Shown: positions 7,395 to 52,247, counted from the stretch's first letter. The stretch: DNA of 64,000 bases from a virus (IMGVR_UViG_3300035505_000313:11501-75500), one strand, 5' to 3'. Translations and numbers: made by a program. Notes: generated by a model not told the origin, from the sequence alone.

Positions 7395-7401
7395 CCTAAA
7401 G

Positions 7402-7644
7402 CTACTTTTTCCTTTTCTTTTTCTTAGTAAACTTAGACTTACCAGAACCTCTCCTAGCATTTCTCATTTCTTCTAAGATTAACTTCTTGTTATCTTTGTA
7501 CTCAGGTTTGTATTCTGGTTCATCAAAGCTTTCTTCGTTCTTGTCACTGATGTTAGCAATCAGATTAGCTAATTGCTCTTTTCGTGTGTTGCCACTACCT
7601 ACGATTCCAGTATGTTGTAGCTTTATGTTGTCATCAGTCATCAT
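7402..7644 (-). CDS. Hypothetical protein with basic C-terminus
   Basis: 80 aa ORF overlapping the upstream ORF. Confidence 0.55.
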   Translation of the reverse strand: MMTDDNIKLQHTGIVGSGNTRKEQLANLIANISDKNEESFDEPEYKPEYKDNKKLILEEMRNARRGSGKSKFTKKKKRKK

Positions 7645-24481: not shown

Positions 24482-24760
24482 ATGACAACTAATGAGAGTT
24501 TTGTAATTTATGTAGAACCTACTATAGTTGGCTGTAAATTATCCTTATCTGTACTTGAAAATAAAACTTACTCTAGTTGGGCGGTTAAAGACGCTTTTAA
24601 TGGCTTAACTAGAGAAGTTTCAATAGATGAAAGTATTGAAGGGTTCTTCACAGCAAATTCAATGGTAGACCTTTATATTTTTGATAATAACCATAAGAAT
24701 TCTATTATCAAGAATGTCAAAATCTTAGAGAAGAATGATGAGGTGAGTGAGAATGTATAA
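24482..24760 (+). CDS. Hypothetical protein in the structural operon
   Basis: 92 aa with RBS. Confidence 0.55.
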   Translation: MTTNESFVIYVEPTIVGCKLSLSVLENKTYSSWAVKDAFNGLTREVSIDESIEGFFTANSMVDLYIFDNNHKNSIIKNVKILEKNDEVSENV

Positions 24761-26297
24761 GAATAGTATGGATGGTGCAACCATTATGTTTATTGGTGAC
24801 ACTTATTGTAAAGCTTATAATATCTCTTACCTTAATGCAAACTACAATAAGATTATGTGTAATCTTCAAAGTGTTAAGAAGATTTATTATAAATGCAATG
24901 AATCCAGAAACAGTTGGATTAACTATAAGAAAGCATTAGTTAAAGAACAGAATAAGAATCTTTCTTATATTGAAAGAATCTTACGAGGTCTTAAGAATGA
25001 TTTCTTATCTGAAGAAGAGTTTCAGGATATGCCTGAATGTGAGTATACTGATTATTGTGGATTTACTTATACAATAGGTGCAAGAGATGGTTTAGATGAT
25101 GCTACATCTGTTAAACAACTTAAGCAGATTTATCAGAACAATATTCAGAAGAAGATTGAGTATGATGTTAATGAAGAATGTTATAGACTTACTGTTAACT
25201 TTAGAACTCCTATTGATGACAGTTTAGTTACATTCAATGGCTTATTTGAACCATTTGAAAGAATTAAGGATGCTAAGAAGACTACTATGATTGTCTATTA
25301 TGAAAGAGACGGTCTTGTATTCCCTAAAGATAGTGATGGAAACTATAAGGAAGATTGGTGTTATATCTTACCTTATGTTTGGAATGGTGTCACTATTGAT
25401 GAGGAATTCATCTATCCAATTAGGAGAGAAGATGAATGGTTAGTCTTCAATGAAGAAATTGATTCTAGTTATTTGATTGTATATAATAAGTGCTTATATC
25501 AATATGAAGTGAATAAGTATGATTCACATTACATTAAGATTGGTGGTGGCATTGATATCGGTAATTCTAACAACTTTAAGTTAGAAGATATCTATGCTAT
25601 TAAGCTTAGAAGTGAAGATGACCAGTTGATTAAGCAACAGAAGTTAATTGGCTTCTATAATGAACATGATGATACAGTATACTTCCCAGAAAGTATTGAA
25701 AATGCATTGATTACCTATAATGGTATTCATCATAGCTATATGATTAAGCCTAATAGGAAATCAATTAAGTTTAAGATTCCAGGTGACCTTGTATTAGATA
25801 CTATTACAGGTGTTGACGAAGAATCTCATATCATTGCAGTTAACTTGTATACTGGACCTTCTCCTGTAGCTGCAGTAGATTTCCCATCTTCAGATTTAGC
25901 TAGAGCTGCTAATCAGATGATTGATATCTATCGTAATAAGCTTAAGCAAGCTGAAGACAGAGTTACTGCATTGGAGAAGACTAGAGATTTGATTTATGAT
26001 GACTTTAATGAACAATTAGAGTTCTCTTATGATAATCCTACTACATTTACATTAAGTTATATTCCAGACCCTAAGTCTTTACGTTTGTATATTAATAATG
26101 TTGAGTATGAGAAAGATATTTACTTTACTTATGATGCAGACAATAAGTCTATTGAGTGGATATTTACTGAAATGAATGATGGTTTTGACTTATCTCCTGA
26201 AATGGAAATCAATGTTGTTTACGATTTGTACTATTCTGTGAATAATATAACAGATATAGATACATTTAAAGAATATATTGATTCTGTACAGTCATAA
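24747..26297 (+). CDS. Probable virion structural protein
   Basis: C-terminal LYINNVEY...IEWIFTEMNDGFDL...INVVY module is shared with 29089-30540. Confidence 0.5.
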   Translation: MRMYKNSMDGATIMFIGDTYCKAYNISYLNANYNKIMCNLQSVKKIYYKCNESRNSWINYKKALVKEQNKNLSYIERILRGLKNDFLSEEEFQDMPECEYTDYCGFTYTIGARDGLDDATSVKQLKQIYQNNIQKKIEYDVNEECYRLTVNFRTPIDDSLVTFNGLFEPFERIKDAKKTTMIVYYERDGLVFPKDSDGNYKEDWCYILPYVWNGVTIDEEFIYPIRREDEWLVFNEEIDSSYLIVYNKCLYQYEVNKYDSHYIKIGGGIDIGNSNNFKLEDIYAIKLRSEDDQLIKQQKLIGFYNEHDDTVYFPESIENALITYNGIHHSYMIKPNRKSIKFKIPGDLVLDTITGVDEESHIIAVNLYTGPSPVAAVDFPSSDLARAANQMIDIYRNKLKQAEDRVTALEKTRDLIYDDFNEQLEFSYDNPTTFTLSYIPDPKSLRLYINNVEYEKDIYFTYDADNKSIEWIFTEMNDGFDLSPEMEINVVYDLYYSVNNITDIDTFKEYIDSVQS

Positions 26298-29088: not shown

Positions 29089-30540
29089 ATGAAAGTTATG
29101 GCTGAAGAATGTCTTTGCAATGTGGTAGCTTCTGGATATGGTTATAGTAGTACCTATGATACTGATGGAAGTTGCCTTTGTAATACAGTTCGTGTAAGAA
29201 AATATCTTTCTACATATGGTTCTTGTGAAAGTGGAGTTATTGCTGGTTATGGTGGTTGTGGTGTAGATACTAGTTCATATAGTAGCTATGGAACTACAAA
29301 TAGCAATAATTCTTCTAGCAACTCATATAGCTCATGTGATGGAACTGTTTGCTCATGCAATTCTAGAAGTAAATTAACTTCTTATGCAGATAGTATTTAT
29401 GGTTCTTGTGGCTATTGTACATGTGATTCTAGAACAGGAACTAAATATGTAGCAGATACAGTGTATGGTAGTTCAAGTTCTTCAGTAACTTGCTCATGCA
29501 ACTCTAGAGTAACGACTACTTATAGTTCATGCGATAACACAAACACTGATACAAATAGTTCTTATGGTTTATGTGGTGATTATAGTTCTTGTAGTAATAC
29601 AAGTTCTTCTTGTTCATGCAACTCTAGAGTAACAAATACAACATCTTCAGGAAGCTCTTATAGTTCTTGTGGGGATTATGGTTCATGTGGTGGTTCTTAT
29701 AGTTCTTATGGTTCTTGTGGAACATATGCTAGTTATACATCATGTGGAACACCTTGTGCATGTAATTCTAGAACTCTTAAAGGTTCTTCTAATACAGATT
29801 CAGAGGATGATAAGACAACTGATGTTGTTGATATTCCAGAAGGAAAGAATATTCCTGAATTGACTGAAACAGATATTGAAGATGTTCAATATAATACACT
29901 TTGGGATACTACTGAAAACAACTCTAAGCTTCCTGCTACTTCTTCAAATAGAACTAATAAAGCTCTTAAGACTTCAAATAAGAGAATAATTACTGCTATT
30001 AATGAATTAGTAACAAGTAATTCAAGCTTAGACAAGAAGATTGACGAGTTTAATGAACGCTTCAATCAAGTAATGGGTAATGAAGTTACTGACCCATCAC
30101 TTCTTACTGATGTAAATGAGTTAGGTGGAAGTGCTTTAGCAGCTATTACAGGTCTGTATAATCTTCTTAAAGAATATGATACAAATCTTACTAAAGCAAC
30201 ACATGATATGCAGTCACTTAAAGCTGAATTGACTGAGAAGATTGAAAGTCTTGAAAGTTCAATTAGCAATGGTGGTGTATCAACAACTTCTACTGCTAAT
30301 ACAATTACAGAACTCGTTACTGAAGATAGATTTAATGAAGCAGCTCAGATGATTACATTAGCAGCTATTCCTAAAGATAGTTCTAATGTTAAGCTTTTAG
30401 TAAATAATGTACAGTATTTTGCTGGTGTTGACTTTATTGTTGATGGTGATAGCATTTACTGGGCATTTACAGAAAATAATGGTGGATTTAATCTTAATCT
30501 TACTAACTACGACATTCATGTTATTTATGAAGTTGGTTAA
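29089..30540 (+). CDS. Chimeric protein: Cys-rich CxCNSR repeats plus a tail-fibre-type C-terminal domain
   Basis: N-half has CSCNSR/CTCDSR/YGSCG repeats. C-half has LKTSNKRIITAINEL and VNNVQYFAGVDF...NGGFNL. Confidence 0.7.
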   Translation: MKVMAEECLCNVVASGYGYSSTYDTDGSCLCNTVRVRKYLSTYGSCESGVIAGYGGCGVDTSSYSSYGTTNSNNSSSNSYSSCDGTVCSCNSRSKLTSYADSIYGSCGYCTCDSRTGTKYVADTVYGSSSSSVTCSCNSRVTTTYSSCDNTNTDTNSSYGLCGDYSSCSNTSSSCSCNSRVTNTTSSGSSYSSCGDYGSCGGSYSSYGSCGTYASYTSCGTPCACNSRTLKGSSNTDSEDDKTTDVVDIPEGKNIPELTETDIEDVQYNTLWDTTENNSKLPATSSNRTNKALKTSNKRIITAINELVTSNSSLDKKIDEFNERFNQVMGNEVTDPSLLTDVNELGGSALAAITGLYNLLKEYDTNLTKATHDMQSLKAELTEKIESLESSISNGGVSTTSTANTITELVTEDRFNEAAQMITLAAIPKDSSNVKLLVNNVQYFAGVDFIVDGDSIYWAFTENNGGFNLNLTNYDIHVIYEVG

Positions 30541-35400: not shown

Positions 35401-36378
35401 TTACTCAATAATTCCTAAATTTTTATAGGTCTTCTTGAACCCTGGACCATAGTCCCAATCATCACAAAGACCTTCAACAGTTGCCCAGTCGAACAAGATT
35501 TCTTGGTCATCATTATGACGACATCTTTCAACTGCAGAACTGCAATCCATAACGGAAAAGCTATACTTTTTGTCAAGTACTTCTTCCATGATATCATAAA
35601 CCATACCATCATCATAAAGATGATAATAGAAATCCTTAAATGCACGATACTTGTTATCAGCATAGTACTTCATAATAGCATCACGATTTCCGGGACTTAT
35701 CTGTACTTCTACAAGGTCAAGATGCTTTCCTCCTACACTATCCAGAATAGGAAGCATTTCGAATAACTTATCTCTATGTAAAGACCATGAAGGTTCTTCA
35801 ACAGTGATTCGGAATCCCATGTTAGCAGCCTTTTCCATGTTATTATAAACCTGTTTAGAGAAGAATGAAGCTGAAACATGGAAACGAAGTTCCTCAACTC
35901 TCATCTCTTTCATTCTCTTAAGATTCTCCTCATTACACAGAATACCATTTGTATATACAAAGTAGTAATGGTTAATACCATTACGGTCTCCAATATCATT
36001 CAGAATCAAAGCAAATTTCTCTAACTCATCAAGGTAAGCTACTGTCTCACCTGCGGACTGATAAGAAAAGATTGTAGGCTTGAAATTCTGAAGATTCTGT
36101 GACATAAAGAACCAATCAGCAAGCTTGCTGTTAATGGAATCCATTGTTTCCTCACCTCTATTAATATCATAATAGCAATAAGGACAGTTACACATACATT
36201 TAGTTCCAATCTGAACTCCTGAACCTTGTTCTCCAGTAAAACATTTACGACATCCTGGAGATATCTTTCCAATATGGAAAGCATGACCATTAGCGTGCAT
36301 TTCAGCACCTTTCTTGAGAAGCTCTTGCTGTCTAGCAAACTTCTCCAACTGAATCTCCTGATAAGGTACAACTCGCAT
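35401..36378 (-). CDS. Radical SAM enzyme, COG2108-like (PFL-activase-related)
   Basis: GKISPGCRKC...GTKCMCNCPYC, YTNG, ELRFH. Likely start MRVVPY at 36378 after AAGGAGG. Confidence 0.75.
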   Translation of the reverse strand: MRVVPYQEIQLEKFARQQELLKKGAEMHANGHAFHIGKISPGCRKCFTGEQGSGVQIGTKCMCNCPYCYYDINRGEETMDSINSKLADWFFMSQNLQNFKPTIFSYQSAGETVAYLDELEKFALILNDIGDRNGINHYYFVYTNGILCNEENLKRMKEMRVEELRFHVSASFFSKQVYNNMEKAANMGFRITVEEPSWSLHRDKLFEMLPILDSVGGKHLDLVEVQISPGNRDAIMKYYADNKYRAFKDFYYHLYDDGMVYDIMEEVLDKKYSFSVMDCSSAVERCRHNDDQEILFDWATVEGLCDDWDYGPGFKKTYKNLGIIE

Positions 36379-36406
36379 AATAAAATCCTCCTTCATATTA
36401 TTTTTC

Positions 36407-37294
36407 TTAATATACAAAATTGCACTTTTTGAATAACTCTTGTAAAAAAGGGTCATATTTGATTATACGCAAATTTTCTTCTCGGTAATCATTAGTCCAA
36501 GCATTATCTGGACTCTGCTTCTCACAAGCAACCCCTCCAAAGTGGAAGAAATAAGGATTCCAATTAACTCCTTGTTTACCAAGATAATCTGCAGTAGAAT
36601 AATAAATTTTTCTTCTCAATATTTCATTAAAAAAGTATGTTCCGCTATCATAACATCCATACAAGTATCTAGAATATTTATCGTTTACTTCTTTGCTTTC
36701 AATATTATCAAAGTATAAATGTTCTTTGTCTATAAGTAATTGAATGTCCATAAAAGCTAATCCCATCCAAATTCTTTTATGATAAACTTTATCATTATAT
36801 CTTTCTAATGTTAAAGGGCATATATCAGGATTATTGCTATTAAAAATATCATCATAGTTATGATTTGGAATAGAAAATATTGTTTTATCTAATATACCAA
36901 TAATATTAGCTTTTTTATGTATTACTTCTTTGAACATTATTTTTAGTGTTGCTTGACTTTTGATAATAATGTCACCATCTAAGAATAAAGCATACATAAC
37001 ATTATTTTTATGTGCATATAAGAAACATTCATTGTAAATCTTATTTACTCTAACGGTAATATTCTTTTCATCATTACTAAACCTTGACCATGTTATAACT
37101 TTATAACCTTTACTTTCCGCCCAAGCTTTAGTATCATCTGTAGAATCATCATCAAAAATAACTATGTTATCTTTAAACATAGGATAAAATGTTAGTACAG
37201 ATTCACTAGCAAGCTCAAGATATGGTCTTATATTCTTACCAGAAATAAAAATATAAAAACCTCCTAATTCTTTTAATTCTCTTATATAATCCAT
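36407..37294 (-). CDS. Divergent GT-A (GT2-like) glycosyltransferase
   Basis: IVIFDDDSTDDT, LFLDGDII (DxD), YDSGT, FFHFGG. Confidence 0.7.
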   Translation of the reverse strand: MDYIRELKELGGFYIFISGKNIRPYLELASESVLTFYPMFKDNIVIFDDDSTDDTKAWAESKGYKVITWSRFSNDEKNITVRVNKIYNECFLYAHKNNVMYALFLDGDIIIKSQATLKIMFKEVIHKKANIIGILDKTIFSIPNHNYDDIFNSNNPDICPLTLERYNDKVYHKRIWMGLAFMDIQLLIDKEHLYFDNIESKEVNDKYSRYLYGCYDSGTYFFNEILRRKIYYSTADYLGKQGVNWNPYFFHFGGVACEKQSPDNAWTNDYREENLRIIKYDPFLQELFKKCNFVY

Positions 37295-38397
37295 TATCTT
37301 GCATACTCCTCTATTAAATTTGTATCAATATCTTCTACTTTACCAAACTCATCAGTTATATCAAAGTTGAAGTGCTTTACAATAAATTCTGCTTTACTAT
37401 ACTTTCTAATAGTTCTTATATTATTAGCTAAATACATTTCAGCAGTACTTTTATTATTATTAATTTCATCTTCTCTTATCTTATTTTCTCTAGAAAAATT
37501 TTCTTTAAGTTTTAGAAATGATGACCTAAAACCTAAATGGCATAAATAAGGTTTACCATAAGGAAAATTATCTTTGCTATCATTAGATTTATCAGCATTT
37601 ATTGTATATTCAAACTTAGAAAATGGAATATTAAATAGCCTTACATCACGATAAAATAAAGAACCACTATCCAAATAAGGTGGATTAGATAGACACTCCA
37701 AATAAGGGTCATCTAATGGGTCAAATAGCATATTATTTTCCTTAAGAGTTGATAAATCTAATAAACCATGAAATAAATGAATCCTATATGGAAGAATTCT
37801 TTTACATTCAGGTTTGTAATTATCTAAAGTATCATGAAGCGTTTGTATATAATCTTTAGGAACACCTTTTGATGGTGCTTCATCATATACATTACTTCCC
37901 ATAGATGAAATATTAACAACCATAGCAGAATTATCTAAATACATAGTATCAAACATAGTGTCTAAAAAGTAATCGAAGAAAAATACATCACCATCATTCA
38001 TAAGTAAATATCTAGTTTGTACTTGTTCAAATATATCATTGAACATCACATTTACTTTATATGAATAACATAATGAACCATACTTTGAACTCATTCTTTC
38101 TTCATAGTTTTCTATATATTTCCTATATTTAGGAGACCATGTAATAACTCTAATATCCATTTCTTCTAAAGCTTCTCTAGTTCCATCATTTGAATCATCA
38201 TCAAATACAACTATATTCTTTTTAAGATATGGATAAAAATACAAGAATGAATTAATAGCAAATATTAAAGTTCCTTTAATATTCTTAGCTGAAAAAGCTA
38301 CTGTTAAATCATCATACACATGCCTATTAAATGTATAGTGAATCAAACTTTTAAGCTTATCCTGTTCTGAATAAGGGGTGTTTTCAAATTGAATCAT
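37294..38397 (-). CDS. Divergent GT-A (GT2-like) glycosyltransferase, paralog of 36407-37294
   Basis: IVVFDDDSNDGT, LLMNDGDVFF, YLDSGS, LCHLG. Confidence 0.7.
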   Translation of the reverse strand: MIQFENTPYSEQDKLKSLIHYTFNRHVYDDLTVAFSAKNIKGTLIFAINSFLYFYPYLKKNIVVFDDDSNDGTREALEEMDIRVITWSPKYRKYIENYEERMSSKYGSLCYSYKVNVMFNDIFEQVQTRYLLMNDGDVFFFDYFLDTMFDTMYLDNSAMVVNISSMGSNVYDEAPSKGVPKDYIQTLHDTLDNYKPECKRILPYRIHLFHGLLDLSTLKENNMLFDPLDDPYLECLSNPPYLDSGSLFYRDVRLFNIPFSKFEYTINADKSNDSKDNFPYGKPYLCHLGFRSSFLKLKENFSRENKIREDEINNNKSTAEMYLANNIRTIRKYSKAEFIVKHFNFDITDEFGKVEDIDTNLIEEYAR

Positions 38398-39210: not shown

Positions 39211-39537
39211 TTATTTACAAGCAGAGCTTACAACTTTGTTAGAGCTTCCACAACCACTATATGTAGGTGTGCTACAAGCAGAAGAAGTTACCTTATTAGA
39301 ACTTCCACAAGAACCATAAGTAGCTGTAGATGGTTTAACTGTACCACATGAAGATGTAGTAGACTTAGAAGTAGAATTCTTAGTCTCTACTACCTTAGTA
39401 TCTACAGTCATACCACACTGACCATAAGTAATAGTAGTTGTCTGAACCAGCTTCTTGAGGTTCTTAGAGTTACATGCTGAATAGGTTGATTCTGGAACTT
39501 TTACGTTCTTCTGTCCATACTTATAAAACTTAGCCAT
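39211..39537 (-). CDS. Short Ser/Thr/Cys-rich protein (precursor-peptide-like)
   Basis: Start MAKFYKYG after AAGGAGG. Repeats YGSCGSSNKVTSSAC and YSGCGSSNKVVSSAC. Confidence 0.7.
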   Translation of the reverse strand: MAKFYKYGQKNVKVPESTYSACNSKNLKKLVQTTTITYGQCGMTVDTKVVETKNSTSKSTTSSCGTVKPSTATYGSCGSSNKVTSSACSTPTYSGCGSSNKVVSSACK

Positions 39538-39559
39538 AATGTTTTCCTCCTTAAATCTT

Positions 39560-41155
39560 TTAATTATCATATGGTGCATACATATCTACAACATTGCAAG
39601 AACATACATCATTACATGCACAAGTTGTTCTAGTTTCACATAAGGGAACTGAACGAGAATTACATCCACATGTAGTAAAGCTTGTTCTATCTACACAATC
39701 ACAGCTTTGACTAGAAGCAGTACGTGATACACAACTATAATCAGTTGAGTAAACTGTTCTAGCTTCACATATTGTATCTAATGCAGTAGTTGTACGCACA
39801 TTACATGTACAATCTACAGCTTGTGTTGTACGTGCAAGGCATACTTTATCAGCAGCATAAGCTGTCCTTGATGCACAATCCGAACTGTATTCTATATAGT
39901 TTGTTGACGTTCTTGATGTACAAACTGACTTTTGGGTTGTTCTACTATTACAAGTACATATTTCTTTGTAGTCAAAAACTTGGTCATTTTTGTCTATATT
40001 ACAACTGCAAGAAACTCCTATATATGCTGTAACTGATACCCTAGATATACAAGTATAATATGAGTAAGTACGTGAATTACAAGTGCAATTAGCTCCACTA
40101 TCAGAGCAAGCAGAATAACTTCCAGAATATCCTGAAGCTATTTTTACAGCATTACATGTACAAGCAAATATACTATCAGAAGTATTTACTGAATTACAGT
40201 CACATGCTGGAACATATTGAGTTGTAGTTCTAGCTGGACATACACTATTATTTGAATTTGTACGTGTGTCACATAAGCAACAACTATTATATTGCTTAAA
40301 ACTAAGTGTATCACTATAACCAACAGTATTACAAAAACAAGCTGGTTTTACTGCAGATGTACCTACAGTATTACATTTACATGAAGCACCTACTCCATAA
40401 TCAACTGAAGTCCTAGTATTACATTCACATGATTCTGAGTAAGTAGTTCTAGATACACAATCGCATACATCTAAAACCTTACCATCTTTGTCAGGTGCTA
40501 TTCTAGAAAAACATGTACAAGTTGTTCCATAAGTAATATCTTTCTTAGGTTCTTGAACTATACTAACTCTTGAACCACATAATATAGCATCTTCATGGTC
40601 ATTTGCTGTTCTAGAATCACAATCACAAGTTACTACACCTAAATCAATATATCCTGCTGTTCTAGAATCACATACACAAGTTATTCCATACACATTAGGA
40701 GAGTACTCAGAAGTTCTAGAATTACACATACAAGCTTCATCAGCATGAATTCTAGAATTACATTCGCAACTTGCATAATAATAAGTCCTTGCTTGACAGA
40801 TAGGAGTAGAATATGGTTTCTCAACTTCTTCACATTCCAAAGTTCTAGAATTACATTCACAAGTGGATGTATTATAAGTAACTATAGTTGTTCTAGACCC
40901 ACATATCATTGTGGTATTTGGTATAAAGTTTGTGACTTCTTTTAAATCTGCTGGTGTCTTTTCCATTACATGATGAATATGACCATTACAATCAGCTCTA
41001 TCAATAGCTTCTCTACGATTATTCATATCTTGTACTAGATTCTTAAGCTGATTTAAAGAACCACGAAAGTTAGCAAAAGGGTCATAACCACGAAGCTTAA
41101 CCATTTCTTCATGTATATCACCTAATGATATTTCTTTTTTATTCCATTCAGACAT
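39560..41155 (-). CDS. CxCxxR repeat protein with shared N-terminal domain
   Basis: 531 aa with many CxC(N/D)(S/T)RT motifs after SLGDIH...SLNQLK...CNGH. Confidence 0.85.
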   Translation of the reverse strand: MSEWNKKEISLGDIHEEMVKLRGYDPFANFRGSLNQLKNLVQDMNNRREAIDRADCNGHIHHVMEKTPADLKEVTNFIPNTTMICGSRTTIVTYNTSTCECNSRTLECEEVEKPYSTPICQARTYYYASCECNSRIHADEACMCNSRTSEYSPNVYGITCVCDSRTAGYIDLGVVTCDCDSRTANDHEDAILCGSRVSIVQEPKKDITYGTTCTCFSRIAPDKDGKVLDVCDCVSRTTYSESCECNTRTSVDYGVGASCKCNTVGTSAVKPACFCNTVGYSDTLSFKQYNSCCLCDTRTNSNNSVCPARTTTQYVPACDCNSVNTSDSIFACTCNAVKIASGYSGSYSACSDSGANCTCNSRTYSYYTCISRVSVTAYIGVSCSCNIDKNDQVFDYKEICTCNSRTTQKSVCTSRTSTNYIEYSSDCASRTAYAADKVCLARTTQAVDCTCNVRTTTALDTICEARTVYSTDYSCVSRTASSQSCDCVDRTSFTTCGCNSRSVPLCETRTTCACNDVCSCNVVDMYAPYDN

Positions 41156-41170
41156 ATATTCTTCTCCTTT

Positions 41171-42148
41171 CTATTTATTAAATATACTAACTCCACCATC
41201 ACAAGTGCATACTGATTGGCAAGCACATGATACTCTAGATTCACATTCGGAAGTTGAACGAGAATTACAATAACAACCAAAGTTAGTAGTTCTATCAACA
41301 CAGCTACATGAGAATACTTTAGTTACTCTAGAGTTACAAGCACAATCCGTTATTCTTGCAGTTCTATTATTACACTCACAAGATTCTGTTGCTGTACTTC
41401 TAGAATTACATGAACATGTTACAACTGTTCTATTCTCGCAACTACATCCAACATAAGTTAAAATCTCATCAGCATTACATTCACAGCCTTTAGGAGCTTC
41501 TTTATCTATTTGTATTCTTGAATCACAAGTACATACTTCGACTAACTCTGACGGACAGTCGGAGTTAGGATATTTTACATAAGATGTAACACTATCCATA
41601 GTGTTAGTTACTCTTGATTGACAGGTAATTATAGGTGTATATGTATAACCACTTCTGTCATTACATAAACAATCACTTTCATTACCATATATAGAATCAT
41701 CTCTATAAGTAGTTCTAGCTAAACAAGTTACATCAGGAACATAATTAGTCCTAGATGAACAAACAGTATCAACGCTATATGTAGTCCTAGAGCTACATAT
41801 AGCGGATACTTGTGGATTTGTTACTTTATCACACGTTAAAGTTCTAGTGTGACATTCACATGTAATATTATTATTGCAATCACATGTGTATAACTGTTCA
41901 GAAGAACAGAGAGATTTTATATTTGGTAGTCTTTTAAATACTGTGTTAGTATTTACTTCATTTCCGTAATTTTCTACTGGCATTGAAAAGTCAGTATGTT
42001 CAGGACAATAACTTTCATTTCTTACTTCATTCATAGAATTAAGCATTTCTTTTAGCTCATTCAAAGAATCGTATTCTTCAGTTTTATATCCACCCTTACT
42101 TTTCAATCCACCATGTAAATCACCTAATGAATCTCTATAATCAGCCAT
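41171..42148 (-). CDS. CxCxxR repeat protein with shared N-terminal domain
   Basis: 325 aa; SLGDLH...SLNELK...CPEH, then repeats. Confidence 0.85.
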   Translation of the reverse strand: MADYRDSLGDLHGGLKSKGGYKTEEYDSLNELKEMLNSMNEVRNESYCPEHTDFSMPVENYGNEVNTNTVFKRLPNIKSLCSSEQLYTCDCNNNITCECHTRTLTCDKVTNPQVSAICSSRTTYSVDTVCSSRTNYVPDVTCLARTTYRDDSIYGNESDCLCNDRSGYTYTPIITCQSRVTNTMDSVTSYVKYPNSDCPSELVEVCTCDSRIQIDKEAPKGCECNADEILTYVGCSCENRTVVTCSCNSRSTATESCECNNRTARITDCACNSRVTKVFSCSCVDRTTNFGCYCNSRSTSECESRVSCACQSVCTCDGGVSIFNK

Positions 42149-42170
42149 ATATAAAACCTCCTATGAATTA

Positions 42171-43853
42171 TTATTCATATTTAATTACTTGGTTACAGCT
42201 ACATATATTTGACATACTAGCTGTACGTGATGGACACAATGAACCAGTTCTTGTATTACAACCACATGATGTAGCGATTGTTCTAGAAGCACAATCGGTA
42301 ACAACATTAGTTCTTGTATTACAAGTACAATTTGCAGTATATACAGAATCATACACTCTATCTGGTTCATCAACTGACCCCATCTCAATCTTATTATAAG
42401 TACCTTGTGTTCTTTCAACACAATCACAAATACTAGTTGAAGCTACACGACTAGCACAAATGTCTGAATAAACATAAGCAGTATTAGCTGTTCTGTTTAC
42501 ACAAGGACAATCTGCTACAGATGTAGCTACCGTTCTTACATTACATATACAATCCACTTTAGCAGTTGTTCTAGATGCACATGTTACTTGAGTTAAGTTA
42601 ACTGTATGAGAACTACAACCACCATCACATGTTCCATAACCAGTACCACATACACTATAATAACTAGTACCACAAGAGGATATATAACCGAATGTATCAC
42701 ATTCTGAATAATAAGAAGAAGCCATACTATCATTACCTCCATTTAAACTTTGATTACTACTACATACACTATAGACCACTGTATCAGTGTTACTATTATA
42801 GTAAGCAAAACTACCACCACCATATAGTTCAACGTAACTATCTGATACTGGTACTACGTTTGAAGGACAACTATAAGTAGTCCTTGCATCACACAAACAA
42901 TTATCATTTGTGCTTTCATATATTGTATCACTTCCACCATAAGCGATATTCTTTGTACAATCAACAGTTGCTACTGTATTGCAAGAACAGCCAGTTCTTC
43001 CATTACATATACAAGTAGTATCTGTTTTATTATATGAATAATCAGGAACAGTTATCTTATCAGAAGTATAACCAGTTCTTGAATTACATACACAAGTAGT
43101 TCTAGAATTACATGAACACATTTCACATGCACTGTAATCCACAACACTGTCATTAACTTTATCACTATCAACTGTTGTTCCTACCCTTGAACCACATACT
43201 GTTTTTGTTCTAGAGTTACATGAACAATCTCCACATCCACTAGTTAACCAGTCAATAGCATAATCACTAGTTGTAGAATAAGTTACCCTTGAACCACATA
43301 CTGTTTTTGTTCTAGAGTTACATGAGCAATCTCCACATCCACTAGTTAACCAGTCAATAGCATATTCACTAGTTGCAGAAGTTCCAGCTCTTGAACCACA
43401 TACTGTTTTTGTTCTAGAGTTACATGAACATGTTCCACATCCACTAGTCAAATAATCTGCAGCATATGTGTTACTAACTGAATAAGTTACCCTTGAACCA
43501 CATACTGTTTTTGTTCTAGAGTTACATGAACATGTTCCACATCCACTAGTCAAATAATCTGCAGTATAAGCCTTAGAAGCTGTAGTTCCAGTTCTTGAAC
43601 TACAATCTACAGCTGTTCTAGATGAACATACAGAAGCTGCAGATGTTGATGTTTCAGTAGTTGTTCTAGATACACATGCACAAACATAATCTCTAGAGTA
43701 AGAACCACCTACATAGCTTGATGTATAAGCACCACCAACATAAGTTGTATAATAAGCACTACCTACATAATTAGTAGTATAAGCACCACCAACATACACT
43801 GATGTATAAGTATTTCCATATGTAGCGGTATAATAACTTGCATAAGAACCCAT
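42171..43853 (-). CDS. CxCxxR repeat protein with Tyr/Gly N-terminal repeats
   Basis: 560 aa. Four YVG(G/S)(A/S)Y 9-mers, then four 34-aa (102 nt) repeats. Confidence 0.85.
   Translation of the reverse strand: MGSYASYYTATYGNTYTSVYVGGAYTTNYVGSAYYTTYVGGAYTSSYVGGSYSRDYVCACVSRTTTETSTSAASVCSSRTAVDCSSRTGTTASKAYTADYLTSGCGTCSCNSRTKTVCGSRVTYSVSNTYAADYLTSGCGTCSCNSRTKTVCGSRAGTSATSEYAIDWLTSGCGDCSCNSRTKTVCGSRVTYSTTSDYAIDWLTSGCGDCSCNSRTKTVCGSRVGTTVDSDKVNDSVVDYSACEMCSCNSRTTCVCNSRTGYTSDKITVPDYSYNKTDTTCICNGRTGCSCNTVATVDCTKNIAYGGSDTIYESTNDNCLCDARTTYSCPSNVVPVSDSYVELYGGGSFAYYNSNTDTVVYSVCSSNQSLNGGNDSMASSYYSECDTFGYISSCGTSYYSVCGTGYGTCDGGCSSHTVNLTQVTCASRTTAKVDCICNVRTVATSVADCPCVNRTANTAYVYSDICASRVASTSICDCVERTQGTYNKIEMGSVDEPDRVYDSVYTANCTCNTRTNVVTDCASRTIATSCGCNTRTGSLCPSRTASMSNICSCNQVIKYE
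43185..43590 (-). repeat. Coding tandem repeat, 4 x 102 nt
   Basis: ACCACATACTGTTTTTGTTCTAGAGTTACA recurs at 43191, 43293, 43395 and 43497. Confidence 0.9.
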
Positions 43854-43867
43854 TAATCACACACCTC

Positions 43868-45019
43868 CTAACATCCACCATAACAAGCAGAGGAACTTGA
43901 AGAATATGTGTTAGTATTGCAATAACAATCAGTTCTAGAATTACATGAACATACACTATTACAAGAGCAAGCAGCATTACATGTACAAACACTTTCACAT
44001 GTGCAACAAGCAGAAGTACTTGTTCTACCATTACAACTACAAGTAGTGCTGTAATTAGTTCTTCCATGACAACTGCAAGATGTTACTGAACTTGTTCTAC
44101 CATTACAACTACAAGAATAAGTAGTACTTGTTCTACCATTACAATCACATACACTTCTTGAACCACATTGAACTGTAGCTGATGTGTATGAATAAGATGT
44201 AGTTCTTGATTCACAAGTACAACCATAACAAGCTGAATAAGTAGTATCTGTATAATTATAAGTTCTAGAATTACAAGAACAAGCAGTTCTAGCATTACAA
44301 GAGCATCCTGTGTCTGTATCATAATAAGTTTTATCAGAAGCATAATCTGCTGTTACAGTAGATGTTGTTCTGGAATTACAAGAACAGGTTGTTCTAGAAT
44401 TACAAGTACATTTAGTATCTTCACTATAATATGACTTATCAGCAGTATATAATGTGTCACCATAATTATATGTCCTAGCATTACATGTACAAGTTGTTCT
44501 GGAATTACAAGTACATTTAGTATCTTCACTATAATATGATTTATCTGATGTGTAATCTGCTGTTACATTAGATGTTGTTCGACTACCGCATACAGTAAGT
44601 GTTCTAGAATTACAAGAACATTTAGTATCTGTATCATAATATGAATTATCAGCAGTATATAATACATCACTAGTACCTTTTGTTCTAGTATTACATGAAC
44701 AAGCAGTTCTAGAATCACATGTACAAATTGAATTTCCATATACATCATCAAAATAAAAATCTCCACATGAAGAACTATAAGCTGAACGTGATGCACAAGC
44801 AACCCCAGTTCTAGAATTACATGAACACTCTCCACAACCACTAGTATAAAAATCTTCTGTATAAGTACTTGAATTTGTATAAGTAGTTCTAGCTGTACAT
44901 ACAATAGATGTTCTAGTATTACAAGTACATTTAGTACCTACACCATAAGAATAATCTGATACTTTATCACCTTGACTTATTGCATAAGTAGTACGTGAAT
45001 TACATACACAATATGACAT
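43868..45019 (-). CDS. CxCxxR repeat protein
   Basis: 383 aa beginning directly at a motif (MSYCVCNSRT); four D(K/N)(S/T)YYxxDT(K/G)C units. Confidence 0.85.
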   Translation of the reverse strand: MSYCVCNSRTTYAISQGDKVSDYSYGVGTKCTCNTRTSIVCTARTTYTNSSTYTEDFYTSGCGECSCNSRTGVACASRSAYSSSCGDFYFDDVYGNSICTCDSRTACSCNTRTKGTSDVLYTADNSYYDTDTKCSCNSRTLTVCGSRTTSNVTADYTSDKSYYSEDTKCTCNSRTTCTCNARTYNYGDTLYTADKSYYSEDTKCTCNSRTTCSCNSRTTSTVTADYASDKTYYDTDTGCSCNARTACSCNSRTYNYTDTTYSACYGCTCESRTTSYSYTSATVQCGSRSVCDCNGRTSTTYSCSCNGRTSSVTSCSCHGRTNYSTTCSCNGRTSTSACCTCESVCTCNAACSCNSVCSCNSRTDCYCNTNTYSSSSSACYGGC

Positions 45020-45049
45020 AATATTCCTCCTTTCATTTAGTATTATATT

Positions 45050-45080
45050 ATGTGGTAAACAAGAATCTTGTTTACCACAT
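45050..45080. terminator. Hairpin between Cys-repeat genes
   Basis: ATGTGGTAAACAAGA/TCTTGTTTACCACAT inverted repeat. Confidence 0.6.
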
Positions 45081-45090
45081 AATCTTAAAT

Positions 45091-45591
45091 CTATCTAGCA
45101 GAGCCATAAAGCCTTACATTGCAATCGCATGATACCCCACATTCTGAATAAACATCAGTTGTTCTAGCATCACAATCGCATGTTCCGCCACATGCTGTAT
45201 AAACATAATTACTTCTAGTATTACATGAACAAGCATCACCACATGCAGTATATGCTGTTGATGTTCTTACATTACAAGTACAACTTGCTGCATAAGTACA
45301 AGCTGAGTAACCTCCAGTTCTTGAATGGCAGTCACAACCTGTTTGGCACATAGTATAAGCATAAGTTCTACTAGCACATAAAGTAGCATCACCACCACAA
45401 TGCGTATAATAAGCAGTTCTATTATTACATGAACATACTTGTTGTACGGAAGTTCTAACATTACAAGAACATTCAACAGTTGTTGCTGTCCTTGATTCAC
45501 AAGTACAACTTACGCCACCTCTAGAAACACATGAACATGAGGCGTAACTTCCAGTAGCATAAGCAGTTCTACCATTACAACTACAAGACAT
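45091..45591 (-). CDS. CxCxxR repeat protein
   Basis: 166 aa with 27 Cys and ten CxCxxR motifs (counted by hand). Confidence 0.85.
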   Translation of the reverse strand: MSCSCNGRTAYATGSYASCSCVSRGGVSCTCESRTATTVECSCNVRTSVQQVCSCNNRTAYYTHCGGDATLCASRTYAYTMCQTGCDCHSRTGGYSACTYAASCTCNVRTSTAYTACGDACSCNTRSNYVYTACGGTCDCDARTTDVYSECGVSCDCNVRLYGSAR

Positions 45592-45606
45592 ATTATCACC
45601 CCCTTC

Positions 45607-46779
45607 TTAACAAGCACTACTACAACTGCTATCTGCAACTAAAGAAACACAATCGCTATATGAATAAGTATAATAAGAAGTTCTAGACTTACAATCACAA
45701 CCAGATGTATAAACATTACCCAAACAGCATGAAGCATAACCTGTTCTTGATGCACAATCTGCACCAACATATTGATTTACATTGCCACTACAATCTGCAT
45801 AAGCAACAGTTGTTTTTGTTTCTGTTCGGGAAACACAACTACATTCTTTCTTTGTTGCACTAACTACATTAGTTCTAGTTTGACATAAAGACACTGCAAC
45901 ATAAGTTTTAGTTTCAGCTAAATTATCTTTACATACGCAACCAGTCCAATATGCTGTGGTATTCTTATCTCTAGATTCACAAGCACAACCTTCATAACAA
46001 GCTGAGTATACATATTCAGCTCTTGAATTACAACTACAACCAGTATATGTAAATGTAATTTGTGAAGTTCTTGATTCGCATAAACATGAATATGTTGTAG
46101 GAGTATTAACTACATCAGATGTTGTTGTATAAGTGGTTCTATTTTCACAATCACATGTACTATTAGCATAAGTTGTACCTGTTCTTGTGTTACAATCACA
46201 GGCTGGAGTTTCAGTACCATTTAAGTTTGCTACTGTATTACAACTACAGTTGTAATCAGTTGTCTGTCTTGTATTACAACTACATACTGTAGTTTGTGTA
46301 TCTTTAGTTGATACTGTATTACAAGTACAGCCATACCCAGTACCTACACTTGTTCTAGTATCACATTTACAAACTGAATTAGTAGTATCACTATAAAGTG
46401 AATCACTTTTATTTATATAAGTAGTATCAACTTTAATCCCCGATACTTCAGAACACTCAGAAATTCTAACATCACAAGCACAAATATTATCATCAACTTT
46501 TTGGTCATAAGTAGACACTAACTTCTTAGTTCCAGCTTTTTGCAAGGACTTATTTATATCCATCAAACTAAGATTAGCTGAAGTCAAACTAAAGTCTTGA
46601 TGAGAAGCACATTGCACTGGTAAACCATCTACAATATCAACAGTCTGAGAACGTGTTTTATTCATACTGTTTACCAAATTTCTTAACTGATTAAGAGATT
46701 TGTATTTATCAGTATCTATTTCAAAACCTTGCTTAAGTTCAGCTTCTTGATGAAGTTCATTTAATGAATTTCTACTCAT
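45607..46779 (-). CDS. CxCxxR repeat protein with shared N-terminal domain
   Basis: 390 aa; SLNELH...SLNQLR...CASH, then repeats. Confidence 0.85.
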   Translation of the reverse strand: MSRNSLNELHQEAELKQGFEIDTDKYKSLNQLRNLVNSMNKTRSQTVDIVDGLPVQCASHQDFSLTSANLSLMDINKSLQKAGTKKLVSTYDQKVDDNICACDVRISECSEVSGIKVDTTYINKSDSLYSDTTNSVCKCDTRTSVGTGYGCTCNTVSTKDTQTTVCSCNTRQTTDYNCSCNTVANLNGTETPACDCNTRTGTTYANSTCDCENRTTYTTTSDVVNTPTTYSCLCESRTSQITFTYTGCSCNSRAEYVYSACYEGCACESRDKNTTAYWTGCVCKDNLAETKTYVAVSLCQTRTNVVSATKKECSCVSRTETKTTVAYADCSGNVNQYVGADCASRTGYASCCLGNVYTSGCDCKSRTSYYTYSYSDCVSLVADSSCSSAC

Positions 46780-46849
46780 AAGGTAGACCTCCTTTCAGAA
46801 AATATAATATTATTAATATAATGAATAGTTCTTATTATATAAAATGAAT

Positions 46850-46882
46850 ATGAGATATACTAGATAAACTAGTATATCTCAT
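46850..46882. terminator. Hairpin downstream of 46896-49043
   Basis: ATGAGATATACTAG/CTAGTATATCTCAT inverted repeat. Confidence 0.6.
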
Positions 46883-46895
46883 ATTTTTTATTTAT

Positions 46896-49043
46896 TTAAG
46901 ATGTATGACTTGTACATACATTTTTGGTTTCTGTAGTATTCTTATTAACTGTATTAACTGATGCAGTTGTATACTGATTTACAGCATTACAATAGCATTT
47001 AGCACTACATCCTACAGTTGTTCTTGATGAGCAGATAGTAGATGTTGTTGCTGATGTTCTAGATACACAATCACAAGTGGTTGTGTAGTTAGTTCTACCA
47101 TCACATGAACATGTAGAAGTTGTACCTGTTCTAGAAGTACATTCAGAAGATGTTATATAATAAGTTCTACCATCACATGAACATGTAGAAGTTGTACCTG
47201 TTCTAGAACTACATTCAGATGTTGTGGTTTTATTAGTTCTAGAATTACATAAACAAGCTACTGTTCCACCTGTTCTAGAACTACATTCAGACGTAGTAGT
47301 ACTTGATGTTCTACCATCACATGAACAAGCTACTGTTCCACCTGTTCTAGAACTACATTCAGATGTTGTGGTTTTATTAGTTCTAGAATTACATAAACAA
47401 GCTACTGTTCCACCTGTTCTAGAACTACATTCAGATGTTGTAGTGTTATTAGTCCTAGAATTACATAAACAAGCTACTGTTCCACCTGTTCTAGAACTAC
47501 ATTCAGATGTTGTAGTGTTATTAGTCCTACTATCACATAAACAAGCTACTGTTCCACCTGTTCTAGAACTACAATCAGCAGAACTATAATATTCAGTTCT
47601 TACATCACATAAGCATGAAGTAGTTGCACCAGTTCTAGAACTACATTCTGAAGACGTATATGAATAAGTTCTAGCTGCACAAGTACAAGAATAAGCATAA
47701 GTAGTTCTAGAAGTACATGTAGAATCATATGCTGAATAGTAACCAGAAATTCTACCATTACATGAACAAGAATAACTTGATGAATAACCAGAAATTCTAC
47801 CATTACATGAACAAGAATAAGCTGAATAGTAATATGTTCTAGCATTACAAGAACAAGAATAACCTGATACTGAGTTACAACTACATGCAGTTCTACTACT
47901 ACACACTGTACTACCTTCAAGAAGATAATAACCAGAACAATCTCCATATACAAATAAATCATAAACATATACATAATAACTTCCACAAGGAATACTAGCT
48001 TGATAGTAAAAAATTTCCCAACTACATCCTACTTTATTACAACTACAATTATAAGTTGCTCTACTAGAACATGTATAATAAGAATATACTCTAACATTAC
48101 AATCATATCCTGTAGCTGTATATGTTCTAACATTACAATCATAATTTGTAGTAGTAGTTGTTCTAGTATTACAATCATAAGATGTAGCTGTATATGTTCT
48201 AGCATTGCAATCAGTATAACTATAAGTTCTAGCATTGCAATCAGTATAACTATAAATTCTACTAGAACATATACCAGTTCTAGATGAACAATTACTACCT
48301 TGATAAGTACTTCTACTAGAACATATAGCTGTTCTACTACTACAATCACTACCTATATCTGTAGTTCTTGCTGTGCATATAGCTGTTCTACTACTACAAT
48401 CACTACCTATATCTGTAGTTCTTGCTGTGCATATAGAAGTTCTACTACTACAATCACTACCTATATCTGTAGTTCTTGCTGTGCATATAGCTGTTCTACT
48501 ACTACAATCACTACCTTGTGTATAAGTTCTACTGGAACATATAGAAGTTCTACTACTACAATCACTACCTATATCTGTAGTTCTTGCTGTACATATAGCT
48601 GTTCTACTACTACAATCGCTACCTTGTGTATAAGTTCTACTAGAACATATAGCTGTTCTACTACTACAATCACTACCTTGATAGTAAGTTCTACTAGGAC
48701 ATGTTCCTGTATCTGTTCCATATGTAGTTCTACTTACACAATCACATGAATCACTAAATTCATATTGTTTAACATTGTGAGCACTACATTTTAAGTTCGT
48801 TATATTACTTGCTGTATCTTTAACAAATCCCATACTTAAAGGGGAAGAAGACGTAATGGTAAAATTCTTATGACCACTACAATCAACTGTATTTCCACCA
48901 AAAGTAGAAGCATTTCGTTCTGAATTTAAACTAGTTAAAGCTGAAGTTAAAGTTTGTAAATCTTTATATCCTGAAGAATAAGAACTACTAACAGACCCTT
49001 TAGCGTCTATTAAATTTTGTAGCTCTTTATAAGAAATTCCCAC
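46896..49043 (-). CDS. Largest CxCxxR repeat protein, with mirror-symmetric repeat arrays
   Basis: 715 aa: shared N-domain, 8 x 18-aa array, aromatic-rich centre, then a 24-aa array. Confidence 0.85.
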   Translation of the reverse strand: MGISYKELQNLIDAKGSVSSSYSSGYKDLQTLTSALTSLNSERNASTFGGNTVDCSGHKNFTITSSSPLSMGFVKDTASNITNLKCSAHNVKQYEFSDSCDCVSRTTYGTDTGTCPSRTYYQGSDCSSRTAICSSRTYTQGSDCSSRTAICTARTTDIGSDCSSRTSICSSRTYTQGSDCSSRTAICTARTTDIGSDCSSRTSICTARTTDIGSDCSSRTAICTARTTDIGSDCSSRTAICSSRSTYQGSNCSSRTGICSSRIYSYTDCNARTYSYTDCNARTYTATSYDCNTRTTTTTNYDCNVRTYTATGYDCNVRVYSYYTCSSRATYNCSCNKVGCSWEIFYYQASIPCGSYYVYVYDLFVYGDCSGYYLLEGSTVCSSRTACSCNSVSGYSCSCNARTYYYSAYSCSCNGRISGYSSSYSCSCNGRISGYYSAYDSTCTSRTTYAYSCTCAARTYSYTSSECSSRTGATTSCLCDVRTEYYSSADCSSRTGGTVACLCDSRTNNTTTSECSSRTGGTVACLCNSRTNNTTTSECSSRTGGTVACLCNSRTNKTTTSECSSRTGGTVACSCDGRTSSTTTSECSSRTGGTVACLCNSRTNKTTTSECSSRTGTTSTCSCDGRTYYITSSECTSRTGTTSTCSCDGRTNYTTTCDCVSRTSATTSTICSSRTTVGCSAKCYCNAVNQYTTASVNTVNKNTTETKNVCTSHTS

Positions 49044-49102
49044 TTTATTTTCCTCCTTTTTCTTTTTTTAATTTAATTATATATTATACAATATAAAAAT
49101 TC

Positions 49103-49199: not shown

Positions 49200-49685
49200 A
49201 TGACAGCTAAAGAAAAAAGAGCTAAAGTAAAGAAAGCATTATTGTCTAGAGTAGGTAAAAATACATATACTCAAGGTGCTAATAGAACTCAGGTTGGTTC
49301 TGGGTATGGTGACTGTTCAGCTACATCAAGATGGGCATATCTATCTACTCATAAGATTGATATTGGTATCAATACTGAAGCTCAGCTTAAATCTTCTAAG
49401 AGTAAGAAAGTCGATGTTAAGATTACGAATGGTATTCCTCAGAAGTCTAAACTTCGTGTCGGTGACTTATTCTACTTTAGAGGAACAAATGATTCTCGCT
49501 ATCAAGGGGTAGGACATGTTGAGGTTTATATTGGTAATGGTAAGCTTTGTGGTCATGGTTCTGGTAAAGGACCTACTATCAAGGATATGGAAGCTTACTG
49601 TAAGTATAGACAAAATGCCAAGTCTACTTCTAAGCTTAAGAATCAAGGTCTTATTGAAGTAAAACGTGTATTCTTTGATGATTAA
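49200..49685 (+). CDS. NlpC/P60 cell-wall peptidase (endolysin-like)
   Basis: YTQG...GDCS, GDLFYF, GHVEVYIGNG..CGHG catalytic Cys/His/His. Confidence 0.82.
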   Translation: MTAKEKRAKVKKALLSRVGKNTYTQGANRTQVGSGYGDCSATSRWAYLSTHKIDIGINTEAQLKSSKSKKVDVKITNGIPQKSKLRVGDLFYFRGTNDSRYQGVGHVEVYIGNGKLCGHGSGKGPTIKDMEAYCKYRQNAKSTSKLKNQGLIEVKRVFFDD

Positions 49686-51167: not shown

Positions 51168-52247
51168 ATGCCAAATATTATTATTAACACAGCGTGTAAC
51201 TTAAGATGTAGATATTGCTTTGCAGATGATTGTAAAGCAAATAATGTAAATATCAATATGACTATGAAGAACTTCAAGAAAGCATTAGACTTTGTTTCTA
51301 GAACAGATAACTATATTGGTATTCTTGGTGGTGAACCTTTGATTCATCCAGATATTGATTCTATGATTATGCAAGTTATTATGGATGACCGCTATGTAAG
51401 TACTACTATTTTTACTAATGGTATTGAAGTAGATAATCATCTTGGTATCTTTGCTAATCGTAAAGTAGGATGTCTTATCAACTTCAATTCAGAAGAAAAC
51501 ATTGAGAATAAAGAGAATGAAGAACGAGTAATTGATAACATTGGTCAGCTAATTGCTCTTAAGAAAGACCAAGATTGTAATGACCCTAATGTTCCTAAAC
51601 CAGACAATCAAATCAATATGGGTTGTAACATTTGGAAACCTGACCAGAACTTTGATGTATTGATTGATACATTGCATAAGTATGATAGACATAATTTAAG
51701 AATATCTACTGTAGTTCCCAATTCAACTGGTAAGAAAGGTATGAACCCTATTGCATATTTCAAGGAAATGAAACCTACAGTAATGAGGTTATTTGATATG
51801 CTTTATGAGATTGGTTGTGTTCCTAAATCAGATTGTAACTATATTCCTACATGTGTATTTACAGAGGAAGAATTAAATGATTTGGAAAGACGTTTTGTTC
51901 CATTAGCACAGAAATATAATCTTGATTTCAATATCACAAGAAACACTACATGTCAGATGGGTCCGATTGATATCTATCCTGACCTTACTGTTGCAAGATG
52001 TTTTGGGTTCTCTGAGCATGATAGACAGAATATTGATGACTATTTTGATATCAATGGAATCAGAAACTATTTCATTAAGACAGTAACGAATCTTGTTCAT
52101 TACGTTCCTTCACAAGAAGAATGTAAGGATTGTTATTCATTCAAAACACTTCAGTGTACTGGTGGATGTTGTGCATATAAGACTGAAGAAGTAGATAGAT
52201 TGAGAGGTGAGATGGATGCCATTAAAGGACTTGATAACGATAGGTAA
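51168..52247 (+). CDS. Radical SAM enzyme with a C-terminal SPASM/twitch-like domain
   Basis: CNLRCRYC, ILGGEP, IFTNG; CQMGPIDIYPDLTVARC...CKDC...CTGGCC. Confidence 0.88.
   Translation: MPNIIINTACNLRCRYCFADDCKANNVNINMTMKNFKKALDFVSRTDNYIGILGGEPLIHPDIDSMIMQVIMDDRYVSTTIFTNGIEVDNHLGIFANRKVGCLINFNSEENIENKENEERVIDNIGQLIALKKDQDCNDPNVPKPDNQINMGCNIWKPDQNFDVLIDTLHKYDRHNLRISTVVPNSTGKKGMNPIAYFKEMKPTVMRLFDMLYEIGCVPKSDCNYIPTCVFTEEELNDLERRFVPLAQKYNLDFNITRNTTCQMGPIDIYPDLTVARCFGFSEHDRQNIDDYFDINGIRNYFIKTVTNLVHYVPSQEECKDCYSFKTLQCTGGCCAYKTEEVDRLRGEMDAIKGLDNDR

Follow-up and report, generated by a model that had tools for sequence, protein, structure and literature searches.

A phage family of cysteine-repeat proteins linked to radical SAM enzymes, and a suggestive mirror order in the two repeat arrays of a 715-residue member

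Protein-sized targets of radical SAM/SPASM enzymes are known from Methanococcus voltae, where CrpC installs ranthionine cross-links on CrpA, a Cys protein with 10 repeats that has an N-terminal region in common with its paralogue CrpB (PMC13692751). In the NCBIfam CXXX-repeat system (TIGR04115), too, a target with Cys repeats has a SPASM maturase dedicated to it, which resembles the arrangement described here, although its Cys residues recur at every fourth position, as opposed to the CxCxxRT pattern of the present proteins. For phage fibers, the tail fiber protein gp37 of T4 is a structural point of reference. Its chain runs to the receptor-binding tip and back, and residues 811–881 and 1010–1026 form one collar domain; the needle is lined with metal sites, and along the shaft liganding residues follow one another in a regular row (PMC6957217).

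Here, we analyzed a window of 64,000 nucleotides of viral DNA (IMGVR_UViG_3300035505_000313:11501-75500), and all positions given below are counted from its first nucleotide. The source record is a 75.5-kb IMG/VR virus that is 31% complete according to CheckV. The analysis centered on a gene at 46,896–49,043 for a 715-residue protein with two arrays of Cys-containing repeats. The product is most likely an enzymatically cross-linked, fiber-associated protein.

The open reading frame is a real gene, and its product is the largest of eight paralogous Cys-repeat proteins encoded by a large uncultured phage. Table 1 lists the parts of the gene together with its neighbors. The protein contains 75 Cys, 138 Ser, 130 Thr, and 49 Arg residues. 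C-x-x-R accounts for all but one of the Arg residues (48/49), and CxxR or CxCxxR motifs, which number 48 and 14, respectively, hold 62 of the 75 Cys residues. The elementary unit is thus C-x-x-R-T, in many cases lengthened to C-x-C-x-x-R-T. Tandem Repeats Finder called the N array as 54 bp × 8.1 copies (48,257–48,695) and the C array as 72 bp × 8.1 copies (47,089–47,673), and it also gave higher-order periods that span two and three units. The 18-residue units of the N array carry two Cys residues each, whereas the 24-residue units of the C array carry three. The aromatic non-repeat stretch (residues 341–366) is close to the inter-array midpoint at about residue 361, in line with the central position assigned to it in the first-pass annotation, and look-alike CSSR..CSCN segments flank it at residues 325–339 and 381–396.

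Table 1. Features of the 715-residue repeat protein gene and of associated genes in the window.
Feature	Position	Strand	Remarks
Gene with N-terminal CxCNSR repeats, at the end of the plus-strand structural block	29089..30540	+	C-terminal module shared with 24747-26297
Short radical SAM enzyme, 299 aa	33255..34154	-	Constant second partner
Radical SAM/SPASM enzyme, 409 aa	34166..35395	-	Nearest to PapB, SCIFF, CcpM, and CteB; orthologues in nine family loci
Third, divergent radical SAM enzyme	35401..36456	-	Homologue in L020 only
Two GT2 glycosyltransferase genes	36407..38397	-	Homologues beside family members in L008 and L018
Seven more Cys-rich genes in the same orientation	39211..46779	-	Six CxCxxRT proteins (390, 166, 383, 560, 325, and 531 aa); the seventh, a small Cys protein of 122 aa, lacks the motif
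Terminator-like 17-bp hairpin	46847..46885	-	Directly past the stop codon of the 715-aa gene
Gene for the 715-aa Cys/Ser/Thr-rich repeat protein	46896..49043	-	Start GTG at 49043
C-terminal tail, aa 657-715	46899..47075	-	CYCNAVNQY as the end motif of the family; extended
C array, eight 24-aa units, aa 465-656	47076..47651	-	One CxxRT and one CxCxxRT per unit
6-17-aa CSCN(A/G)R... units past the center, aa 381-464	47652..47903	-	
Aromatic-rich non-repeat center, aa 340-380	47904..48026	-	Similar CSSR..CSCN segments on either side
Short 8-12-aa CN(A/T/V)RT... units leading to the center, aa 259-339	48027..48269	-	
N array, eight 18-aa units, aa 115-258	48270..48701	-	Two CxxRT motifs per unit
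N-terminal non-repeat domain, about aa 1-95	48759..49043	-	Common to three paralogues and the wider family; invariant C-x-x-H
Shine-Dalgarno sequence AGGAGG	49052..49057	-	8 nt ahead of the GTG start

An N-terminal domain of about 95 residues is common to four of the repeat proteins in the window, namely those of 715, 390, 325, and 531 residues. The C-terminal module that the plus-strand gene with CxCNSR repeats has in common with the gene at 24,747–26,297 (E = 3e-10) occurs in genes that both belong to the structural block. When 1.84 billion representative sequences were searched with a profile of the N-domain, 27 proteins matched. Most of the 25 that were retrieved consist of the N-domain, a run of CxCxxRT repeats, and a CxCNxVxxF end; the exceptions are P0017 and P0019, which have few or no CxCxxRT repeats, and P0012, which is truncated. 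The repeat protein contains 10 to 16% Cys with regular CxC spacing. The N-domain is marked by SL..L, by L..LK.LLN.M..R, and by an invariant C-x-x-H, and the 715-residue protein and its three paralogues align with these features. For P0011, a member of 238 residues, an AlphaFold2 (AF2) model based on an alignment of 25 sequences had pLDDT values of mostly 80 to 94 in the N-domain (lower at residues 41–60), below 40 in the core, and 67 in the last strand. The 715-residue protein has the N-domain, the C-x-(C)-x-x-R-T core, and the pair of radical SAM genes, and we assign it on these features to an undescribed phage family with a predicted folded N-domain of about 90 residues, a C-x-(C)-x-x-R-T core, and a CxCNxVxxF end.

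Searches with Pfam, PHROGs, and NCBIfam gave no family for the 715-residue protein or its paralogues. The 715-residue protein had no match by tblastn among GenBank phages (50,697 deposited genomes), in a word-indexed search for homologues of the whole protein, or in a sequence search of the PDB, and the short radical SAM enzyme had none in the GenBank phage genomes either. Because there is neither a family model nor a match in deposited phage genomes, the family is invisible to routine annotation. In viral contigs, a degenerate DNA pattern for the aromatic center found nothing, and the N-domain alignment yielded no confirmed match. Back-translated patterns of the 715-residue protein gave 70 candidates in metagenome contigs, of which none was confirmed. 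A fold search with the P0011 model reached a best Z of 4.1 and gave no match in BFVD, and our literature searches turned up no account of a phage system of this type.

Orthologues of both radical SAM enzymes stand beside a CxxRT protein in all nine family loci that have enough flanking sequence (L006, L007, L010, L011, L012, L015, L016, L018, and L019). Across these loci, identity is 30 to 45% for the SPASM enzyme and 36 to 50% for the short enzyme (E values of 1e-58 to 1e-93). Among the 79 genome loci retained for having relatives of the SPASM enzyme, the five closest all adjoin a repeat protein, and none of the other 74 does. Searches that started from the enzyme and searches that started from the repeat protein reached the same cassette.

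In three prophages, the cassette comes after genes for the baseplate or tail fiber. In L010, which belongs to Thermoanaerobacterales, it is preceded, in this order, by genes for the tape measure, baseplate J, and Gp48 and followed by those for an amidase and a holin; in L016, a Peptostreptococcaceae prophage, a baseplate wedge gene and a tail fiber gene precede the cassette. The cassette follows a minor tail protein of 1036 residues in L019, an Izimaplasma contig, and is located between the major head protein and an endolysin in L006. Judged by gene order alone, this prophage synteny supports the suggestion made earlier that the 715-residue protein has a role in the virion, possibly in receptor binding. 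The named hosts of the five cassette-bearing genome loci are apparently strict anaerobes (Clostridia, Peptostreptococcaceae, and Thermoanaerobacterales), which fits with oxygen-sensitive enzymes.

The SPASM enzyme is placed in the radical SAM/SPASM superfamily by its matches to PF04055 and PF13353. Its best family match is PapB (NF047865; 156.5 bits, E = 1e-45, profile positions 4–306 of 330), at a score below the cut-off of 340. Further matches, to SCIFF, CcpM, CefB, and QhpD, are all under the curated cut-offs as well; the TIGR04115 maturase model was matched with 103 bits (cut-off 350), and the CrpC-type model TIGR04463 with 69.8 bits by the SPASM enzyme and 46.8 bits by the short enzyme (cut-off 525 bits). 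The closest solved structure is that of CteB (5WGG; 2e-29), in an alignment that covers CteB residues 98–449. The match thus begins at residue 98, and an N-terminal recognition domain of the CteB type (residues 1–97) is absent from the SPASM enzyme. The CxxxCxxC radical SAM cluster motif is present with invariant residues C19, C23, and C26, which are kept in four orthologues, as are the C-terminal Cys columns of the SPASM region. The two radical SAM genes are on the same strand as the 715-residue gene, 11 to 16 kb downstream and behind the paralogues.

Taken together, these data suggest that the radical SAM enzymes would cross-link every motif locally by linking the sulfur of its Cys to a carbon in a residue close by. 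Conservation makes Arg at position +3 and Thr at position +4 the obvious candidates for the acceptor. The GT2 enzymes may add sugars to the Ser/Thr-rich spacers, and the expected product would be a virion protein that resists reduction and protease and is putatively associated with the fiber. The two arrays themselves are young, lineage-specific tandem expansions that arose through a few duplications of one or two units each.

The order of units in the two arrays was then compared. The first-pass annotation had described two unit types, Q and I, in the N array and had noted that their order recurs in reverse in the C array. Both arrays and their unit order were recovered as described: the N units, in register, read Q,Q,I,Q,I,I,I,Q, and the C units, read forwards, CLC,CLC,CLC,CLC,CSC,CLC,CSC,CSC, which gives a match at 7 of 8 positions in mirror. 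With this binary coding, P = 4/56 = 0.07, rising to 16/56 = 0.29 once both orientations and both mappings are allowed. Two other codings matched in mirror at 8 of 8 positions, namely a finer coding that compares N unit type with "Ser before Arg" in the C units, and an independent one in which N units 3 and 5 (RTSI) are paired with C units 6 and 4 (NKTTT).

For a comparison that uses the whole of both arrays, the nucleotide distances of all 28 unit pairs were taken in each array, and the N and C matrices were compared by a Mantel correlation. The correlation was 0.81 in mirror order and −0.05 in forward order, and the mirror value was reached by 58 of 40,320 permutations (P = 0.0014). Among the 16 dihedral maps (rotations and reflections), the exact mirror alone stands out, the next best value being 0.31. 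With the edges dropped, the inner six units still gave a mirror r of 0.76 (8/720 permutations; P = 0.011); shifting the unit phase left r lower yet positive (0.34–0.83), and adding the flanking degenerate units left the mirror axis unchanged, with r of 0.90 to 0.93. Given the distance-matrix test, setting the order aside as plain chance on the strength of the binary P values would be too dismissive.

The permutation null is, however, too generous for tandem arrays, because a few duplications make most of their structure. Some units are nearly identical: N2–3 and N4–5 differ at 3 of 108 nt, N6 equals N7, and C4 equals C6. When independent arrays were simulated with tandem duplications of one to three units, r was at least 0.81 in mirror in 1.6 to 15% of runs, and in 3 to 28% of runs if either orientation was counted. 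Since 2 to 15% of independent arrays match in this way, the mirror order is suggestive and not proven: the pattern is real, at roughly the few-percent level, and the test of it is post hoc. In addition, the ages of mirrored partners are at odds in places. N2 and N4 differ at 2 of 54 nt, whereas C7 and C5 differ at 18 of 72, and N6 and N7 are identical, whereas C3 and C2 differ at 5 of 72.

One reading of this order is that the chain folds back on itself, with the N array running outward, a tip at the aromatic center, and the C array returning, such that N unit i would lie against C unit 9 − i. The unit types would then be complementary and the arrays would expand in register, and stapling by radical SAM enzymes within motifs would be compatible with such a path. 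We regard this as a possibility of less than even standing. It would account for the mirror correlation and the lack of a forward one, for the high values at the exact mirror axis only, flanks included, for the result with the inner six units, and for the two independent codings. The resembling segments on both sides of the aromatic center, the conserved N and C ends and variable middle of family members, and the last strand of the P0011 model, which is predicted with more confidence than the core, also speak for it, and the out-and-back chain at the tip of T4 gp37 is a precedent (PMC6957217). What weighs against it, next to the post hoc nature of the test, the simulations, and the disagreeing ages, is that two paralogues have a single array of about four copies of 34 to 35 residues and no partner array. 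Modeling of the full chain by AF2 without an alignment gave an unusable result (mean pLDDT of 36.9, uninterpretable), and an Atlas model for one of the paralogues, itself of low confidence, looks like β-solenoids, whose neighboring units are stacked on each other. Complex prediction for the family N-domain with the C-terminal 42 residues scored 0.03, which is evidence neither way; by a rough hand calculation, symmetric long-range internal duplicates about the core center of family members show a weak, non-significant tendency, and no search route returned a close homologue carrying these arrays in which matched gain or loss of units could be followed. The one-to-one Cys ladder between the arms that had been proposed at first fits poorly, because unit lengths and Cys per unit are unequal; antiparallel packing as such is not contradicted by this. 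The location of 48 of the 49 Arg residues in C-x-x-R, together with the radical SAM neighbors, points to cross-links within motifs rather than from arm to arm. The data neither show nor exclude an antiparallel pairing of unit i with unit i from the end. A fully functional mirror order, with each unit of one arm paired to a unit of the other and an aromatic tip that binds the receptor in a fold-back fiber, thioether staples made by the radical SAM enzymes, and repeats gained and lost in register, appears still more doubtful to us. A coincidence of two alike duplication histories is the more likely origin of the mirror order than arm-to-arm pairing, of which the order would be no proof, but with P = 0.0014 for the eight units and 0.011 for the inner six, coincidence is not a comfortable explanation.

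Two other readings leave the radical SAM enzymes without a direct role in cross-linking, and both seem improbable to us. The CxC and CxxR units could be metal sites (Fe, Zn, or Fe–S) that rivet a fiber in the manner of the His sites of T4 gp37, while the radical SAM enzymes act elsewhere or only aid folding. The high Cys content with its regular CxC spacing, the invariant CxxH in the N-domain, and the seven iron sites along the gp37 needle (PMC6957217) would suit such sites, but a radical SAM pair flanks or adjoins the repeat gene at every one of the nine loci, the nearest relatives of these enzymes all make Cys thioethers, and an invariant Arg-Thr after every Cys is an unusual pattern for a metal ligand. 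Alternatively, each array could be an independent β-solenoid with one unit per coil and ordinary disulfides, as in insect antifreeze proteins, the radical SAM genes being unrelated neighbors. Units of 18 and 24 residues are typical coil lengths, which counts for a solenoid, as do the one or two strands per unit and the solenoid-like structural neighbors of the low-confidence models. CrpA has likewise been modeled as a β-helix (PMC13692751). Ordinary disulfides are, however, hard to reconcile with proteins made in a reducing cytoplasm of apparently strictly anaerobic hosts, and the conserved linkage to the radical SAM enzymes argues against unrelated neighbors. Considered as a whole, the account we favor (a family with two radical SAM partners, local cross-links in the motifs, a fiber-associated virion protein, and a mirror order that arose by coincidence) is in our judgment somewhat more probable than its alternatives combined. 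Against this account stand the sub-cut-off scores of all radical SAM family matches and the lack of a CteB-like recognition domain; in this phage, moreover, at least 11 kb separates the repeat genes from the enzymes, and the plus-strand structural block does not include these repeat genes.

If radical SAM enzymes of the kind known from peptide antibiotics do staple whole virion proteins, RiPP-type chemistry would reach into phage structural biology, and such stapling could account for the stability of fibers in phages of anaerobes. What is new here is that the mirror-ordered pair of arrays turns a structural idea into a specific prediction: a true mirror register would entail specific cross-links and matched changes in the copy number of both young arrays. 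A functional mirror order, if it exists, would be a new building principle for a host-recognition organelle of phages.

Among known systems, T4 gp37 has no match in sequence or fold to the protein described here, for which a fold-back is only proposed; gp37 is also a trimer with His-Fe sites that depends on chaperones rather than radical SAM enzymes. PapB/PapA (freyrasin) and CteB/CteA (SCIFF) provide the best family and structure matches to the SPASM enzyme and, as here, have repeated short Cys motifs as targets. The PapA and CteA substrates are, however, peptides of about 45 to 50 residues with a cleaved leader, whereas the putative substrates in the window have 166 to 715 residues. Unlike the PapB and CteB systems, the present one has a second, obligatory radical SAM partner, no domain like CteB residues 1–97, and scores below the family cut-offs. 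The closest system with experimental data is CrpA/CrpC: in both cases a protein-sized substrate, putative in the present case, starts with an N-terminal region common to paralogous substrates and continues with Cys motif repeats, a radical SAM/SPASM enzyme is encoded nearby, and a β-helix is predicted with low confidence. The motif is C-x-x-Q/D in CrpA and C-x-x-R here, and the system described here differs from CrpC (TIGR04463) in being phage-borne, in its location in the tail region, and in combining two or three radical SAM enzymes and GT2 enzymes with eight candidate substrates.

Across the whole 715-residue Cys-repeat protein, 48 of the 49 arginines lie in a C-x-x-R motif, with a cysteine at Arg-3, and arginine is nearly absent outside it. 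This confinement implies that Cys-Arg(-Thr) would be a functional unit of the protein. The two segments that border the aromatic centre are alike and form a direct repeat around it.

Long-range direct duplicates are also present in several members of the family (P0005, P0008, P0011, P0013, and P0014), with one copy directly after the N-terminal domain and the other directly before the C-terminal motif. The duplicate comprises 25 residues at 80% identity in P0011 and 48 residues at 70% identity in P0014. Placement is approximately symmetric about the core centre, but by a rough estimate not significantly so. Two neighboring paralogues that lack the family N-terminal domain carry one array each, with units of 34–35 residues (102 and 105 bp). 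Both arrays begin with YTAD and show a higher-order period of two units.

Features of the window and of related contigs
Feature	Location	Strand	Remark
Cys-repeat protein	window 46896-49043	-	
CSSRATYN-CSCNKVG	window 48027-48071; aa 325-339	-	one side of aromatic centre
CSSRTA-CSCNSVSG	window 47856-47903; aa 381-396	-	other side of aromatic centre
Leaderless paralogue array	window 43172-43604	-	~4 units
Leaderless paralogue array	window 44252-44725	-	~4 units
NlpC/P60 peptidase gene	window 49200-49685	+	matches PHROG "tail protein with lysin activity"
Fourth radical-SAM gene	window 51168-52247	+	2 kb beyond NlpC/P60 gene
Third radical-SAM enzyme	window 35401-36456		
Its homologue	L020:1609-2493		43% identity, E 7e-78
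SPASM orthologue	L019:6001-7497		ORFs 6001-6579 and 6640-7497
GT2 glycosyltransferase gene	window 37294-38397		
GT2 homologue	L008:2062-2544		45% identity; directly adjoins family member
GT2 homologue	L018:3285-4058		36% identity; directly adjoins family member

The NlpC/P60 peptidase gene is transcribed divergently from the Cys-repeat gene. On L020, a 4.2-kb contig from a Prolixibacteraceae MAG, the homologue of the divergent third radical-SAM enzyme adjoins a SPASM orthologue, and a motif filter picked out no CxxRT protein there. The SPASM orthologue of the Candidatus Izimaplasma contig L019 is listed as two ORFs under table 11, despite a tblastn alignment spanning 396 residues; the split could be due to a stop or frameshift, or to another genetic code. 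The contigs L008 and L018 are unrelated, and since GT2 homologues adjoin family members in both, this gene order suggests glycosylation as a possible accessory step that recurs.
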